Shown here: piece after piece, positions 1 through 11,507 of the stretch | Layout: every line of letters starts with the position of its first letter | How positions within the stretch are numbered: the first letter of the stretch is position 1 | Origin: Paramecium tetraurelia | Lineage: Eukaryota | Assembly: GCA_000165425.1 (NCBI GenBank) | Contig: CT868069.1 | Location: forward strand, 62,001-126,000 | DNA: 64,000 bases | Direction: 5' to 3' | Position numbers and translations under genes: made by a program | Notes under the pieces: model-generated | Told to the model about the DNA's origin: nothing | What the model saw: only the letters and a program-made list of their open reading frames with translations | Databases searched by the model: none

Positions 1-1297
1 ACTCATTTTCACCCCATTTGATTTTAATAGAGTACGAATCATCATCTGCAGGTAGATTGAGTGCAAAGTAGACCATACACTGTAATGACCATTAATATGA
101 TAAATCAGCCCGTATTTTTTCCAGTGTTTTCTAATCGGTTATCTTTTGCTTGTCCTTTTTAGGTTGTTCTGAATCAACCAATTCCATGGCTAATAATATT
201 CTACCAGCATAACAAGTTCCCAAATCAGGATGACTGCATAAATACACTCTCTATTCTGAATTCGCATCTATGTGTGCTCCATATATATGATACCATTTGG
301 GTTATTGTAACTTAAAACCAATTAATATATTAGATTACTTAGCCACTTAAAATGTCTGAGATTTTAAATAATTGACTACCGGCTATTTCATCTTTTCCAC
401 CCATATCATAATCAAACAGTCTCATTATTAAATATTCGCTTTGGCATGGTGTCATCACAGGCAACTGATAAGGAATATTATCAATATGATTACAAATAGA
501 TTCAATTCCCAAATTGGAGCATTAAGATTTTTAATCAAATCAGTTTGAATTTCTTAACCACCAATTTCAAAAACTACATATGGATCAATGGATCCCAACA
601 TCGAATCCATCTTCATTAGATTGGTGGCTCTTCCTAAAGTGATTTTCAATTATTGTCCCTTTGTTTGGATATGAGGTGGTAAAAGTAATTCCCCTTCAGC
701 AAAGAGATTATTTTTAGATTCCTCTATCTTGCCTCTCTCCTTAATTTCATTATCCATCAATAAAGTGGTTTGTTTATCTGACTCATGCACTACGTTGATA
801 CTGATCTTCAAATATCCAGTGATTTTATTGAAGTCCTTCTCTGGATTGATCAATCCCTAACAATAATAAATTGATGTCCTTACCAACCACTTGTGCAACA
901 ATACATGATCATCCATCATATAAATAGTTGAGAAATCGAATTCGTAGATCCCAACTACTGCATTCCTTCCAAACACTTTGTGATCTAATACTGAAATTTT
1001 CACATGCTATGATTGAATTTACCAACCATTGGAAAAGGATCTTTTGAAATAGAAATGTTCATTCCAAACTAGAGTGCTGTTTGATCCAGTTCCCTTCTTT
1101 TGAGAACTGAATTTCTTCTAGTCCATGGTTTCAATTTGAATTAATGGATCTATTGTACTCTCATTGTCATTTGGATTTTAGAGTGCTCTTGTCTATTGCA
1201 ACAGGATGTGCACTAAGTACTCCCCTGGTTTAAATTATAAACTTTCCTGTTGGGGTTCAGGCTCTTCTTATTGCAATTAATTTTTTTTATCTGCCAT
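1..1297 (-). CDS. Ferlin-like multi-C2-domain protein, 5' part (runs off window start)
   Basis: Ciliate-code translation MADKKNQLQQEEPEPQ...; C2 motifs TIDPLIQIE, LVWNEHFYF, KISVLDHKVFGRNAVVGIYEFD, HVLLHKW, ITGYLKISINV, then a second C2 (SIDPYVVFEIGGQEIQT..NAPIWE); several ~25-nt introns. Confidence 0.75.
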
Positions 1298-1316
1298 ACA
1301 AATTATTAATATTAAA

Positions 1317-2287
1317 TCAAATTTCAATATCCTCTGTGAATTCTTCTGTGCATGATCCACTGACATTGAAATAACTGGTGTGATCTGCAGCAGAGTCACC
1401 AATGATTGAATTGGCACAAGTTGGATCCTCATCAATTCCACCTGAACAAATCTACACATCATATGATAAGCTTTAATTACCTTGTATGACTTGTTGTCAT
1501 GAGCATACCAAACTTCTTGGGGAGGGTGCTTGTAAGAGAATGAAGAGGGTGGCTAATGAATAACCATATCCCTGTAATGAGTCACTCTCCAATGTTCTGT
1601 AGCTCCAACAAAACTAGTAAACCAAACAGCAAACTCATGACTTCCAATACGAGGAGATCCATAAGTAAAGAAATAGTCGACGTTGTATCCGAGTTTCTTC
1701 AAATCAACTGCAGCCAAATAAGCCACTGCACCACCCAAGGAATGGCCAGTCACCAACAATTTCGAAGTGGGATACTTCTCTTTCAAATGTTTTGCAGCAG
1801 CCAACACCTCGGCTGATACGTCATCGTAAGTTTCCCAAAATCCTAAATGAACTTTGCAATTCTTGCAATCTCCAAAATCATGCTTAAAGAACTTGATGTT
1901 ATTGTACCAATTGATAAAGTCCTAAGTACCTAAAATAATGTTATTCACTTCTCATACTTCTGTACACCACAACCACCAAATTTTCCTTCTTGTTATATCC
2001 GACATATGCCTATGCATGGTGATCAGACTTATAGAATGCCTTCACCTCTACCATATCTGGATGGTGATCGCAAAATGAACCACAATTCCAATTTGATATA
2101 CTCTACAACAGTTTATCTATTGTTTTACCTTCAAACTGCATTTTGCCACCTGGGTGTAGTAGAAAAAGCTTTCTGATTGAGTGTGCTAATAAGTCTATTG
2201 CAAACCCATCAGTCTCTCCATCCTTTCCTCAACATTTCCGTGCACAACTGTCAATAATACACAAAGAGCTATTATTGAATACGTCAT
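1317..2287 (-). CDS. Secreted class-3 lipase (triacylglycerol lipase fold)
   Basis: Signal peptide MTYSIIALCVLLTVVHG; VHLGF; catalytic VTGHSLGGA; FTYGSPRIG; RVTHYRDMV; C-terminal DHTSYF; short introns; TGA at 1317-1319. Confidence 0.92.
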
Positions 2288-4509: not shown

Positions 4510-5731
4510 TCATAACTATATTTACTGTTTTACTAAAAAAGGAAAATCCTAAAATAATTCTTAAGCCTAAGGAATATTAGGTATTTCAGATTATTTCATC
4601 TAACTCTCCAAGACATAATCGAAATTTCTTGTATCCTTTTCAGTTGTCAATAATGGTTCAAAGGGGGGCTTCAGTTTCTTTTAATATATTAAATCAAAAT
4701 CTATATCCTAAAAAAATTCATGCTATTTAATCTATTTAAAACTTAATCGTTCTTCTGGATGGTATTGCAATAATCCTTTAATAAGTGATTAGGCTGATGA
4801 GCTTGCTGTTGGTGGAAATTTAAACTCACCTGTTTGAATCTTAATATATAAATTTTTCTTATTTTCATCTTGGAATGGAGGATGACCGAAAAGCATTTCA
4901 AAAATAATGCAACCTAGAGTCCAAAAGTCAACTGATGCATTATGTCCCTTCTCTTATTCTTAAATTAAATTTTACCCTCAATCATCTCAGGAGCCAAATA
5001 TTCTGCAGTACCACAAAATGAATAATTCAATTCACTATTATCTTTTGCAAGTCCCATATCTGCCAATTTTATGTAACCATCTCTACACAGTAGAACATTT
5101 TCAGGTTTTAGATCTCTATATGCAACTCTAACTGTTTCATGTAAAAATTCAAGGGCCAAAACTAATTAAGATGCATAAAATGCAGTCGTTTTTTAATCAA
5201 ACTTTTTTCTTTTGTTCAAATGATAAAATAATTCTCCTCCCTATACGAATTCCATAACCATATTGATAAATAAAGGCTCTTAAAAAACAAAATACATTTT
5301 TATTATAAAAGGATGATCATATTTCTACAATATGAATCTTTCATCTTAATTATCATTGAATATAATTACAAAGCAAATTCTCTAATTGTTATTTCTTTAA
5401 AATCAACTTTTTCTTTATCTGTTTCATAGCATATAACTTATCCTTAATTTTGACTAAATATACTTTTCCAAATGAGCCCCTTCCTAATAACTAACTCTCA
5501 CTTAATAAATACCTTAATGGGCCAAACATCATTTTGTGTTATATTGAATGTATTTTAAACCTCGAAATCTCCCAATTTCTTTTTAACATCATCTAATTGT
5601 TATTTCAATTTTTGAATTAATTCTTCTGTTATTTCAATCGGCTCCTCCTAACTCTAAATTGACAGAGCAACACTTGATTTCTCTTGATTCTTTTCCCCCT
5701 TTTTGCAACATTATTCCAAAATTTATCCCAT
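4510..5731 (-). CDS. AGC-group Ser/Thr protein kinase with acylation-type N-terminus
   Basis: MGQILEQCCKK start; GRGSFGKV, YAMK, YRDLKPEN, DMG, FCGTAEYLAPE, DFWTLG; AGC tail KPPFEP..DTRNFD..FQDFPF; two short introns. Confidence 0.92.
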
Positions 5732-7178: not shown

Positions 7179-8372
7179 TAATAGAATTCTTAAATAATGA
7201 ATATATTAAATTGATATTTTGCATTAGATTTTTTTGAGTTTGACAAGCTTAAATTAAGAAAAGAAACAAAATTGAGCTTAATAAAAAAATACGATTTATA
7301 ATTTTAAACATATCGCAATAATTATTATTTCATTCATATTTTCTGAATATTATCATGCTCTCCCAAGTCAAATAGATATATTTATTGTTTATATTCTTTA
7401 ATTAGCTTGAAAAACCATAAATCTTATGGACTGAAGTATTTAAATTTTAATGAATTTAGTGTTATCATTACATTCTGATAATGCCATTTATGGTAATAAT
7501 TGAAGTCTATTATTCTTCGGAATTATTTTAAAGATTTAATTTCTTAGTCAATCAATAAAAGCATTATTTATCAAGAGCTGTAGTTTTATGTTTTAAATTT
7601 TATAAAAATAGTTTCTTTAGAAATTGAGTGACAATAGAAAATTAGCTTTTATTGATGCACTTAAATTTAATGCTTTCATTGAGTATGAATTTTACACTTT
7701 AATATATTAACTTTTTTTACCTTCTAAGCATTTTGAGGTTCAGAATCTTATGAATTAATCTTTTTAAAGATTTTCAATAATTTCGCTTAGAATTTTAATT
7801 TATAATATATTTCATAATTATCTTCCGCTAAATTGATTAAATGAATTTCAGTAAGATTTCTTAACAAAATTCTTTAGACATTTGAAAGTTCAATTGAATT
7901 AATTAGCTTAAATTAAATGGAAAATTAAGTTAAATAAATTACTTATTAAAAGAACACAATTAATGAAATTTGATAAATAAATTAAAGAATTTACAACTTG
8001 GCTCTCTACACAGGATAGATTAATCATCTAAATAAACAATTCTGTGAGGATAGCTTTCAAATCAACATATTATTTTTAAGATATACAAAAAGATCAAAAT
8101 TGTACAAATTGCTTTAGAATTTGACATAAATATAAAATCAATATCAAAATATTTTCCAGAATGGCTTTTTAAATAAATGATCATCAATGCCTATTAGATG
8201 TCTAAAATCAGATATTTATTAAGAATTTTCATTAAAGATTAATGGTTAATTTTTTTGGAGATAAAATTGGTCTTTTTGGCAATTTTGTATCTCTGAATTA
8301 GAACAGTTTATAAATTTTAATATGAATAAATTTAATATAGGATAAACTTATTTTAAATATTCTTTATATTTA

Positions 8373-9522
8373 TCAGAAAACGATGGCGGCTAAGACTAAA
8401 CTGGCTGCTAGTATAGCTCCATTCTTGGTGGTTGAGGGTGTTGTGGTTGTGGTTGTAGTGGCAGCTGCTGGTGGTGGTGTTGTGGTGGTGGTGGTTGTTG
8501 CTGCTGGTTTAGTTGTGGTTGTGGTGGCAGCTGCTTCGGCATAATGTAAACGGAAGTTCACTAAAATAACATCATTTTATACATCTCTCTGATTCTTCTT
8601 CTTCTTCAGATTCTTCTTCTGATGATGATTAAGCCTCTGATTCTTCAGATTCTTCCTCTGATGAGGATTAAGCTTCAGATTCTTCTTCTGATTCTTCTGA
8701 TTCTTCTTCGGATGAAGATTAAGCTTCAGATTCCTCTTCTGATTCTTCTGATTCTTCTTCTGATGAGGATTAAGCTTCAGACTCTTCTTCTGATTCTTCA
8801 GATTCTTCTTCTGATGATGATTAAGCATCTGATTCCTCTTCCTCTTCTGATTCTTCTTCAGATGATGATTAAGCATCTGATTCTTCTTCTGATTCTTCAG
8901 ATTCTTCTTCTGATGATGATTAAGCATCTGATTCCTCTTCCTCTTCTGATTCTTCTTCAGATGATGATTAGGCATCAGATTCTTCTTCCTCTTCCTCTGA
9001 TTCTTCTTCTGATGATGATTAAGCATCAGATTCCTCTTCCTCTTCTGATTCTTCTTCTGATGATGATTAGGCATCTGATTCCTCCTCTTCTTCTGATTCT
9101 TCCTCTGATGATGATTAGGCATCGGATTCTTCTTCCTCTTCAGACTCTTCTTCTGATGATGATTAAGCATCTGATTCTTCTTCCTCTTCTTCTTCTTCCT
9201 CGGATGATGATTAAGCTTCTGACTCTTCTTCTTCTGATTCCTCCTCCTCTGATGATGATTAAGCTAAAAGGTCTGAACTTTCTTCTGAGCTTTCTTCTGA
9301 TTCTTCCTCTGATGATGATTGAGCCTCTAATTGACTTGTTTTGAGCTTAAGCTTGTTACTTGTAGCAGCTAAAAGGATATTAATTCAGTTGAGTCAGGAG
9401 ATATGAATTTGTGTATAAATAAATAATATATGGGGGTTAGTGAGGATATAAATGTGTAGTTTACCTTGAGCGCTAAAAGCGAGCATGGAGATGAGCAATA
9501 GAGCAAGAAGTGTTTTGGACAT
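8373..9522 (-). CDS. Secreted, probably GPI-anchored Ser/Glu-repeat protein with Thr-rich stalk (343 aa)
   Basis: Signal peptide MSKTLLALLLISMLAFSAQA; introns 9369-9464 and 8561-8582; 15 x AQSSSEEE(S/E)..; mucin-like poly-Thr/Pro; terminal NGAILAASLVLAAIVF*. Confidence 0.88.
8590..9324 (-). repeat. Coding tandem repeat, 15 units mostly 48-51 nt encoding AQSSSEEESEEEEESD-like peptides
   Basis: gatgatgatt(a/g)(a/g)gc-like anchors at 8621, 8660, 8711, 8762, 8813, 8861, 8912, 8960, 9011, 9059, 9107, 9155, 9203, 9251, 9311. Confidence 0.95.
9369..9464 (-). other. Unusually long (96 nt) spliceosomal intron
   Basis: GTAAAC..TTTTAG with no internal AG; removal joins signal peptide (CAA G|CT GCT) in frame; retention gives an in-frame TGA. 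Confidence 0.8.
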
Positions 9523-10232
9523 CTTCGTTAACTTTTATTATTATTTAAATAAAAATTCAAATCCAAATTTGCTTTAAACTCTAATAATGCGTAATTATGT
9601 TTTCTCAAATCTTTTTTGATACTCTAGTAAAATTAAAATAAAATATATATTTAAAGTTTATTCTCTTAGTATATTAAGATTAAGCAATATTTTATCGAAA
9701 AAACTTGCATATAATGCAATTTTTAATTATCGCCGTTAGATATATAAATTTCCTCATTTTATTTTATTTTGTTTTATGAGGAAAATACATAATTTTACTT
9801 CAGCAAAATAGAGACCAATTTTAATTTAAATATTAAAAAAATTTACAAATTCAAAGCTCCTACCTCGAAGCACCCAAAACTCCCATTAAGCAGGGAAAAG
9901 TGTTGCTTTCCTTTCAGTCAATTATTTTTTATATTTCTTCACATTGGTTATATTTAATATACTTTTCTGTACTTAATTCAAAAATAATCATTTCTTCAAT
10001 AATTGATTGTTAACAAAAAATTTGAAATATCAAATATATGAAAATTTAATTTAAATAAAGGAAATCTTTTAAATCACTGTGAAAATTTCCATAAAACGAT
10101 ACTAGAGCCATTAATCAATTATAATAATTTTTGAATTTATTAATAAAATAGGTAATTTGAGAGGAGTTATTTAAATTTTCTTAAAAAAATTATTGTATTT
10201 TAAATTTATATAATTTTGAAACCTAAAATTAA

Positions 10233-11340
10233 ATGCCCAAATTATAACGTGATCATTTCCATTTTACTCTTTTAATAATATATCTATTCCAAAATCAGCT
10301 GAAAGCTCATTTATTTATGTATTTTAGTTAGAACTTAACAGTAAACTTATTTCTTAAATAGTATTTTAAATGCTTAATTTAAAAACAAAATAGCATCCAC
10401 TTTCAACTTAAAAAAGGCAATATTGGACTACAAAAGAAGACAAATTATTATAAAAGGCTTTAAATTTGCATAATTCAAAATGGAAAACAATCGCTGAGTA
10501 TTATTTTCAAAGAAATGGAAGTTAATTTTCATAAAGACGGAAAAGAATTAAACCTCAAGTTTTAAATATGGATTCTTAATTTAACTTTGAAAGAAAATTC
10601 TGGACTCCAGAAGGGGTTAAATTTCGAGAAAGTCTTATATAAAAGTATATGTTTGAATGGAAACAATCACAAGTTACTTGGATGGTAGAACATCGAAATA
10701 AGTTCAAGAACGTTATAACAATCATTTAGACCCTCTAATTAATAAGAAATCATGGAGTTAAGAGGAAGATCTATAATTATGGTCATTATATTAATAATTT
10801 GGACCAAAATAGTCAAATATTTCTTAAACTCTATAAGGTAGACCGGTATTATATATTATTTAATTGCTTAGGAGAATTCAAAAAAGAATAGATATTATTG
10901 GCACATTAGAAATTCTATGCGAGGAAGAAAACCCATATTATGTTATTCCTTAATTGAAAAGAAGTATTGAAAAAGTTGATTGATAAGTTTATAGTTAGAA
11001 TTATCTATCTTACAGTCCAAGAGCAAAAATTGAAAAAATATTATCAATTATAAAATAAATTGCTTTTTTAAGTCCGAATCCATTAGATATTAGTTTTTAG
11101 AGTGATATAGTATAAAATTCAAAGGGAATTACAAAATAGAGGTTTAGAGGATATTTAAGATTTTTAGGAATGGTTGATGGATAATTAATTTTGTAAGGAA
11201 TTTCTTAAAGTGTTACATTAGTATATGGGGAAGAAGATTCAATTATGTAAATAGAAAATTGGGTTCATATATAAGGTTTGAATTCAATTTATTGCAGAAT
11301 TAGCAACAGTTAGAACTGCAATCAGATAGGAGGTATATTG
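10233..11340 (+). pseudogene. Three-repeat Myb transcription factor pseudogene (boundaries approximate)
   Basis: YWTTKEDKLL..KWKTIAEY..RNGSQFSQRRK; FWTPEG..W / ITSYLDGRTSKQVQERYNNHLDP; WSQEEDL..FGPK(Q)SNIS..GRPENSKKNRYY. 1-nt frameshift near 10664, conserved Trp/Cys replaced, first intron lacks an AG acceptor. Confidence 0.8.
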
Positions 11341-11507
11341 AGGTTTAGAGTTTTAGATGATTGACAATTAAATTAGATCTTAAAATTTTCATTAATTATT
11401 TAATTTTAATTGAAAAGATTTATACTATCAGATTTAAAATACTTCTAGGTTTGTTGAAATATAAACCAAATAATTAAAAATAGTCAAATTCAATTATTTC
11501 TTGCAGC

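Follow-up and report, generated by a model that had tools for sequence, protein, structure and literature searches.

A gene on the minus strand of a 64,000-nucleotide stretch of Paramecium tetraurelia DNA, here called the window, is real and strongly expressed, and its product is a small protein dominated by serine and glutamate. It is an even call whether this product, which would be an abundant, GPI-anchored, cysteine-free and disordered polyanion, forms a fixed-charge, Ca2+-exchanging coat on the cell surface. Counted for this reading are an abundant spliced transcript, a retained duplicate, a QSSSEE core whose codons have changed only silently, and a tail shaped like that of the surface antigens of the same genome. 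For this candidate Cys-free polyanionic surface protein of GPI type in a ciliate, expression and selection are well supported, and the function is a proposal.

Gene model and transcript

Read with genetic code 6, the gene extends over three exons from position 9522 down to position 8373 of the minus strand, and its product has 343 amino acids. The features of the gene and of the protein are the following:

9523..9616, minus strand: conserved upstream block, promoter and 5' UTR of 3-10 nt; 87% identity to the duplicate; contains the RNA ends
9465..9522, minus strand: exon 1, 58 nt, with the ATG at 9522; encodes the signal peptide
9369..9464, minus strand: intron 1, 96 nt, GT..AG, phase 1
8583..9368, minus strand: exon 2, 786 nt; encodes a brief basic leader followed by the acidic block
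8587..9324, minus strand: acidic block (residues 35-280), built from 15 AQSSSEEE units in tandem, each 13-20 aa long, and predicted to be disordered
8561..8582, minus strand: intron 2, 22 nt, GT..AG, phase 1
8541..8586, minus strand: linker RLNFRLHY, residues 281-288, split by intron 2; identical in both copies
8373..8560, minus strand: exon 3, terminating in TGA at 8373
8424..8540, minus strand: Thr/Pro/Ala stalk of about 39 aa, residues 289-327, defined by composition and possibly O-glycosylated
8373..8423, minus strand: GPI-type signal; N-G-A triad, 13 hydrophobic or small residues, stop codon
8323..8372, minus strand: 3' UTR, about 50 nt; the X3 contig begins at 8323; 80% identity to the duplicate

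The window lies at G000:C86:62001-126000. TAA and TAG encode glutamine in it; this code, the 22-nt intron and the surface-antigen repeat matches scored in the genome identify a macronuclear genome of Paramecium, and the literature on P. tetraurelia was taken as the reference for the genus. In exon 2, 14 of the glutamine codons are TAA. Consequently, the standard-code reading frames miss the acidic frame, as the earlier note on this DNA had pointed out. A gene of this kind is easily missed: standard-code frames lose it, and trypsin would, by computation, leave a single 252-residue peptide of its product. An annotation that filters out introns longer than 45 nt, as described in PMC5485702, would break the gene model.

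In the oligo-dT run X21, nearly all reads on the gene have one orientation, which fits a minus-strand RNA, and the depth is about 150-200 versus at most 1 for the neighbours, bearing out the high expression that had been suspected. The depth is 179-227 in the bins of 8613-9416, and at most 1 outside 8211-9617 over the 6 kb examined. Within the repeat, part of it comes from cross-mapping reads of the duplicate gene, whose letters show as loose ends. At position 9501 of exon 1, 152 reads of X21 carry the letter of the window copy and none carries that of the duplicate: the window copy is thus strongly expressed by itself.

The junction of intron 1 is spanned by 37 X21 reads and 47 loose-end reads, as well as by a contig from a second study (X3); run X15, which is DNA-like, does not show it. 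For intron 2 of the window copy, only 6 loose-end X21 reads join 8583 to 8560, beside a segment in which the reads are cut; for the duplicate, removal of the equivalent intron is seen in 163 X21 reads. RNA reads thus establish a spliced transcript in the acidic frame, with both introns removed, the second mostly on the evidence of the duplicate. The RNA molecules end upstream of the ATG at 9525, 9527 and 9532, and downstream at about 8323.

Two other frames were considered and rejected. On the plus strand, a 341-aa Ser/Asp frame (8297-9322) that resembles dentin phosphophoryn has a depth of at most 0.6, and the introns are GT..AG only on the minus strand. On the minus strand, a long Lys/Asn/Gln-rich frame (8373-9917) has no signal peptide, and it is the acidic frame that is picked out when intron 2 is spliced. 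The plus strand of 8297-9322 is also full of TGATGA and CTGA words that mimic C/D snoRNA boxes; the plus-strand Rfam matches to C/D snoRNAs in the repeat, all below the gathering score, were discarded as products of the repeat letters.

Outside the repeat, the preference for C-ending codons that the earlier note described is confirmed, with 23 of 63 fourfold sites, compared with 177 among 1130 in long ORFs of the window, a crude reference. Its picture of long non-genic flanks holds in part: X21 shows no RNA depth over them, but conservation with the duplicate reaches no further than about 100 nt upstream and 50 nt downstream. Identity to the duplicate is 87% over the first 100 nt upstream, then 56% and 50%, against a baseline of 53% given by shuffled intron-1 sequences; downstream, it is 80% in the 3' UTR and 55% beyond. 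The 95 nt or so upstream of the ATG, 87% conserved and followed by a sharp drop, form a compact candidate promoter for strong expression.

Anatomy of the protein

The 343-aa product contains 126 E, 88 S, 9 D and no C, and it has no N-glycosylation sequon. By hydropathy, residues 1-20 read as a signal peptide, as first proposed: they contain Lys3, a Leu-rich core whose hydropathy (KD) reaches 2.9, and small residues where cleavage is predicted, near Ala18 or Ala20. The peptide is conserved in the duplicate.

The acidic block is 246 aa long, with 54% D/E and 33% S, and is made of 124 E, 81 S, 15 A, 15 Q, 9 D and 2 L. Its 15 repeats had been said to have almost no basic or aromatic residues; K, R, H, F, W and Y are in fact all absent from residues 35-280, and so is Pro. 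The units tile the whole block and each internal Q precedes SSSEE, so that no divergent unit was dropped. A mean net charge of 0.54 and a scaled hydropathy of 0.25, versus a folding boundary of 0.61, place the block far into the disordered range, and the computed net charge of the mature chain, unmodified, is near -128. A polyanionic brush, with more than half of its residues acidic and none basic, is thus an apt description. Between brush and stalk, the linker RLNFRLHY is the sole basic or aromatic patch and the sole Arg-containing site.

The stalk keeps its Thr/Pro/Ala composition in the duplicate. That it is mucin-like is true of composition over about 39 aa, but the Pfam Mucin profile gives E = 0.97 and 9.9 bits against a cut-off of 34.7. 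The protein ends in 15 uncharged residues, with no cytosolic tail and with Asn328 as a candidate anchor site; the hydrophobic terminus already noticed, N-G-A followed by 13 residues, has the shape of a surface-antigen tail.

As a control for this shape, we scored 150 surface-antigen repeat matches in the genome and read the C-terminal ends at 14 surface-antigen loci. The same sequence of a polar stalk, a small triad and 16-18 uncharged terminal residues is seen at 8 of the 14; two others are similar but interrupted, two end before the tail, and two have no Cys-rich frame. The surface-antigen (SAg) family, described as GPI-anchored (PMC9788069), shares with the acidic protein its genome, the signal peptide, the shape of the tail and the presence of internal repeats. 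However, its members average about 2,200 aa and have a cysteine periodicity (PMC9788069), whereas the acidic protein has 343 aa, no Cys and a predicted disordered chain, and its exons 2 and 3 give no match to the family profile PF01508. As GPI-anchored proteins of Paramecium, the consulted portions of the literature describe surface antigens rich in Cys, along with a few receptors of small size (PMC9788069, PMC10143506). A Cys-free and highly expressed polyanion would form a class apart from them.

The signal peptide and the extreme acidity would also suit a membrane-tethered Ca2+ buffer, or a condensing polyanion, in the lumen of an organelle such as a trichocyst, an alveolar Ca2+ sac, an acidosome or a food vacuole. 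Alveoli take up Ca2+ by pumping and serve as its store (PMC2288916), the granule proteins of ciliates combine acidity with Ca2+ binding (PMC2133959), and the phosphorylated acidic repeats of Toxoplasma RON9 sit in a secretory organelle. On the other hand, the tail is shaped like those of surface antigens, and the protein has no ER-retention signal. GPI proteins mostly reach the surface, and granule lattice proteins are folded, soluble proproteins. We regard a lumenal location as rather unlikely.

The duplicate gene and selection

A paralogue of the gene lies at G000:C402:423.2-424.2 kb. It keeps the order and the orientation of the window, as do three more matching stretches, the only other stretches of the window that match the 40 kb around it, and this arrangement is as expected of a whole-genome duplicate. 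The duplicate encodes 229 aa with 8 units and the same architecture, and has the same two introns, of 95 and 22 nt, the second at the same position and of the same length. Judged by depth of the X3 contigs, it appears about 1.7 times as abundant as the window copy. Its segment L002 1715-2152 (minus strand, G000:C402) contains three Tyr in acidic context (E-S-Y-S-Q, E-Y-S-D), which resemble tyrosine-sulfation sites, and it carries a basic Arg/Pro/His leader that the window copy does not have.

No third copy was found in the genome. The pattern of TCN-coded SSSEEE, which excludes AGY-coded Ser, has 29 matches there: 15 in the window gene, 7 in the duplicate and 7 singletons, all of which seem to be Ser/Asp or Ser/Glu runs of other genes, read in antisense. 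A search for a third family member by the linker pattern was set aside, its 6 matches being the two known copies and four chance occurrences, at control level. In the flanks, we detected no remnant of a lost duplicate gene.

In the 48 non-repeat codons that were compared, the two copies differ by 13 silent changes and 1 replacement: 5 and 0 in the 19 codons of exon 1, 2 and 0 in the 11 codons from NFRLHY onward, and 6 and 1 in the last 18 codons. The sequence of the stalk has diverged and its composition is retained. The QSSSEE core is present in 23 of 23 units of both copies, with 7 distinct silent codon variants and no replacement; given an opportunity of 13:41 for silent versus replacement changes, this yields a naive p of about 5e-5, a value that overstates the case since the units descend from one another by duplication. 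The three positions before Q vary among units, and the Gln itself is invariant in all 23. Selection on the SSSEE core appears supported by these counts, but it could act on composition rather than on the motif, because replacements are also rare elsewhere in the acidic block.

The number of repeats is variable, 15 versus 8 between the copies. Together with high expression and the architecture of a polyanion on a stalk, this freedom fits a bulk-charge role, in which the same surface molecule would be an electrostatic and steric spacer that prevents cilia and cells from sticking, in the manner of sialomucins such as podocalyxin, or a decoy for polycationic toxins and metals, and Ca2+ binding would be incidental. 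Procyclins have been proposed as protective coats (PMC8591177). A pure spacer, however, needs neither an invariant QSSSEE core nor an invariant RLNFRLHY linker, and we consider this explanation possible but unlikely. Spacing and ion exchange rest on common physics, and both roles may hold.

The invariance of the linker, the one site with Arg that separates brush from stalk, and that of the Gln also suggest a tethered precursor: cleavage at the linker or at the A-Q junctions, or shedding by a GPI-PLC, would free acidic (phospho)peptides that chelate or signal. Paramecium is described as releasing its GPI proteins with a PLC of its own (PMC10143506). But the linker is equally explicable as a binding or sorting element, and such a precursor seems improbable.

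Serine clusters and possible phosphorylation

The earlier note saw in the SSSEE clusters a casein-like mechanism, with serines phosphorylated by a Fam20C-type kinase. The clusters are indeed in excess, 15 versus 2.2 +/- 1.3 in composition shuffles (maximum 8 in 5000), and the 15 are copies of one unit. S-x-E sites are modestly enriched, 50 versus 40.7 +/- 3.7 in 5000 shuffles, 45 of which reach 50; since the shuffles already give 40.7, most of these sites follow from composition. Among the serines of the block, 65 of 81 fit S-x-E/pS.

Fam20C has been linked to the phosphorylation of caseins, and Fam20 orthologues are described across the animal kingdom in a review whose available portion makes no mention of protists (PMC7948968). 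The search for a kinase of this type gave no candidate in the genome, either with the Fam20C (PF06702) and FAM198 (PF15051) profiles, which are weak blanks since no control genome rang, or with the CotH profile, whose control rang in 4 of 14 genomes. The casein mechanism is not supported: the kinase profiles gave no match, weakly so for Fam20C and FAM198, most of the S-x-E sites come with the composition, and the clusters were duplicated from a single unit. With nothing that links the gene to a mineral, a true casein-like protein, phosphorylated by Fam20C and binding calcium phosphate or crystals, is very improbable.

What the protein shares with caseins and other SCPP or SIBLING proteins is SSSEE clusters, disorder and secretion; it differs from them in its GPI-type tail, its 15 identical clusters and a ciliate host with no detectable Fam20C. 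SCPP genes belong to a vertebrate locus, and have phase-0 introns and a soluble product. Here, both introns are in phase 1, the tail is of GPI type, and there is no match to Pfam or to a homologue, which argues against descent from these genes.

A closer parallel for phosphorylation comes from Toxoplasma. Its secretory kinase RON13 has a published consensus that contains SQSS in an acidic context, and RON9, an alveolate secretory protein, has tandem acidic repeats with S-Q-S-S-E that yield RON13-dependent phosphopeptides, without Fam20C (PMC8213820; 30 of 35 RON9 rows). RON9 differs in being a rhoptry protein and not a GPI coat, and the two are compared by motif. Two points count against a common enzyme. 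The main RON13 acceptor is the Ser before Q (PMC8213820), and the corresponding residue is Ala in 21 of the 23 Paramecium units; and RON13 itself is described as coccidian (PMC8213820), and WNG kinases, in the available portion of PMC6442604, only from intracellular parasites.

Rhoptry-kinase-like proteins (PF14531) were considered as candidate kinases and rejected: in the best 5 of the 88 genome matches, no signal peptide was seen, and the best of these 5 has a PX domain. Four of the PF14531 matches are strong (L062-L065; G000:C546, C3, C446, C69), with 130-294 bits; they are kinase-like, with no evident HRD or DFG, and the PX domain of the strongest lies upstream.

By analogy with RON9, it is possible, though somewhat less likely than not, that the serines of the SSS core are phosphorylated by a non-Fam20 secretory or ecto-kinase, which would add charge. 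Phosphorylated serines would point to a new enzyme of extracellular phosphorylation in ciliates.

The long first intron

About 98% of P. tetraurelia introns have 20-30 nt, and the very few that measure about 80 nt reportedly host snoRNAs (PMC5485702); PMC8997360 yields nothing further. Intron 1 has 96 nt in the window (9369-9464, minus strand) and 95 nt in the duplicate (L002 2155-2249), and the two are 81% identical. A branch-point-like CTRAC is found at position 68. It belongs, with a CTGA conserved near the 3' end, to a 29-nt block in which one letter differs between the copies and which is found only in these two genes.

We tested intron 1 for the hallmarks of snoRNAs, C/D boxes and H/ACA hairpins, and found none: no RTGATGA within one mismatch, hence no C box, only 3-4 G, and no terminal ACA. 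The intron of the window copy has no stable fold (z = 0.57), and there is no Rfam match inside it. The LSU rRNA, a possible guide target, was not found in the assembly. The small-RNA run X24, whose size class is ill-suited to snoRNAs, has only 3 partial reads on 6 kb. The identity of 81% equals that of intron 2 and of the 3' UTR, so special constraint is not indicated; a calibration of intron conservation on neighbouring duplicates yielded no more than 2 candidate introns, not enough for a judgement.

Some transcripts retain the intron, the X21 depth at 9397 being 22 versus about 150 in exon 1, and a retained intron 1 meets an in-frame TGA. Five X21 reads start at 9397, immediately ahead of the A that would serve as branch point. 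Intron 1 may host an RNA, though in an atypical way, or else be regulated; we found no treatment of it in the open-licence literature.

A proposed Ca2+-exchanging surface coat

As a surface coat, the protein would work as follows. Its signal peptide would send it into the ER, the C-terminal 15 residues would be swapped for a GPI anchor, and the Thr/Pro stalk would hold the disordered chain, with its approximately 130 carboxylates, at a distance from the membrane of the cell body or of the cilia. Polyelectrolyte behaviour suggests that the chain would stretch out in dilute fresh water and exchange cations by its fixed charge, holding a large amount of Ca2+ loosely and releasing it upon competition by K+, Ba2+ or polycations. 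The glutamates alone would be enough for this exchange, and a phosphorylated SSS core would add to the charge.

Sites with such properties have been described. Live P. caudatum has a rapid, ion-exchange Ca2+-binding component that is inhibited by K+, Rb+ and Ba2+ (PMC2225717; PMC2201152), and the cilia of P. tetraurelia have anionic sites on their outer membrane that bind polycationic ferritin (PMC2110115). In the open-licence literature, we found no paper that ties these ion-exchange or anionic sites to a gene, or that describes such a protein. The acidic protein may be proposed, by analogy, as a testable candidate for the anionic, Ca2+-exchanging sites of the Paramecium surface described in 1967-78, and the gene pair offers a two-gene RNAi target for these older observations of rapid Ca2+ exchange and of ciliary anionic sites.

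Several points speak against the surface coat. The anionic sites of 1978 reportedly coincide with plaques of intramembrane particles, and a GPI protein would not build these by itself. The surface charge could come from lipids or glycans, no kinase was found, and the repeat number is free. Finally, the closest analogues, the procyclins, are dispensable, as described for null mutants (PMC8591177).

The procyclins of Trypanosoma brucei (EP/GPEET) are nevertheless what the acidic protein would most resemble in its working: they are abundant, GPI-anchored, with short Glu-rich repeats, and perhaps phosphate-modified (PMC8591177). Their repeats are EP or GPEET and not Ser/Glu, and the portion of that paper that was available describes no Thr/Pro stalk. 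The acidic protein has no procyclin repeat and no match to Pfam or to a homologue; the likeness would thus be one of analogy, not of homology.

Nearer at hand, the Grl proteins of Tetrahymena and the trichocyst matrix proteins of Paramecium are soluble, undergo processing and build the crystalline cores of granules, whereas the acidic protein is a chain of low complexity that ends in a tail of GPI type. They resemble it as acidic, Ca2+-binding secretory proteins of ciliates (PMC2133959).

A bolder form of the surface-coat proposal would make the gene pair a main part of the Paramecium surface cation exchanger known from the physiology of 1967-68, with a phospho-Ser/Glu brush produced by an alveolate secretory kinase unrelated to Fam20C, and with the rare 96-nt intron as a regulated splicing switch. 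This combination is distinctly unlikely. If true, ciliates would have reached independently, in both substrate and enzyme, the solution to Ca2+ binding that caseins embody in SSSEE.

Homologues and neighbouring genes

No homologue of exon 3 was found among 4274 longer-protein candidates or against 1.84 billion representatives, and none of exon 2 among 8000 candidates scored. The libraries did not return the acidic gene itself, though it or its duplicate would score E 1e-12 to 1e-68; these blanks are consequently uninformative on orthologues in other Paramecium species. In a metagenome scan, one of 153 candidates passed and was rejected, as it lies between bacterial genes and matches by chance. 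The protein atlas, queried with exon 3, gave a best score of 0.78, below the useful range, and the bacterial promoter and tRNA scans returned nothing relevant to the acidic gene.

Head to head with the acidic gene lies a Myb-domain gene (PF00249, about 10370-11360, plus strand) that is silent in X21. A protein kinase gene (PF00069) with short introns is found at about 4660-5600 on the minus strand; the kinase of contig C402 at the matching place is only 35-44% identical to it and has the opposite orientation. Elsewhere in the genome, near the start of contig G000:C39 (L043, about 1260-1335, minus strand), a stretch looks by eye like a tRNA gene.
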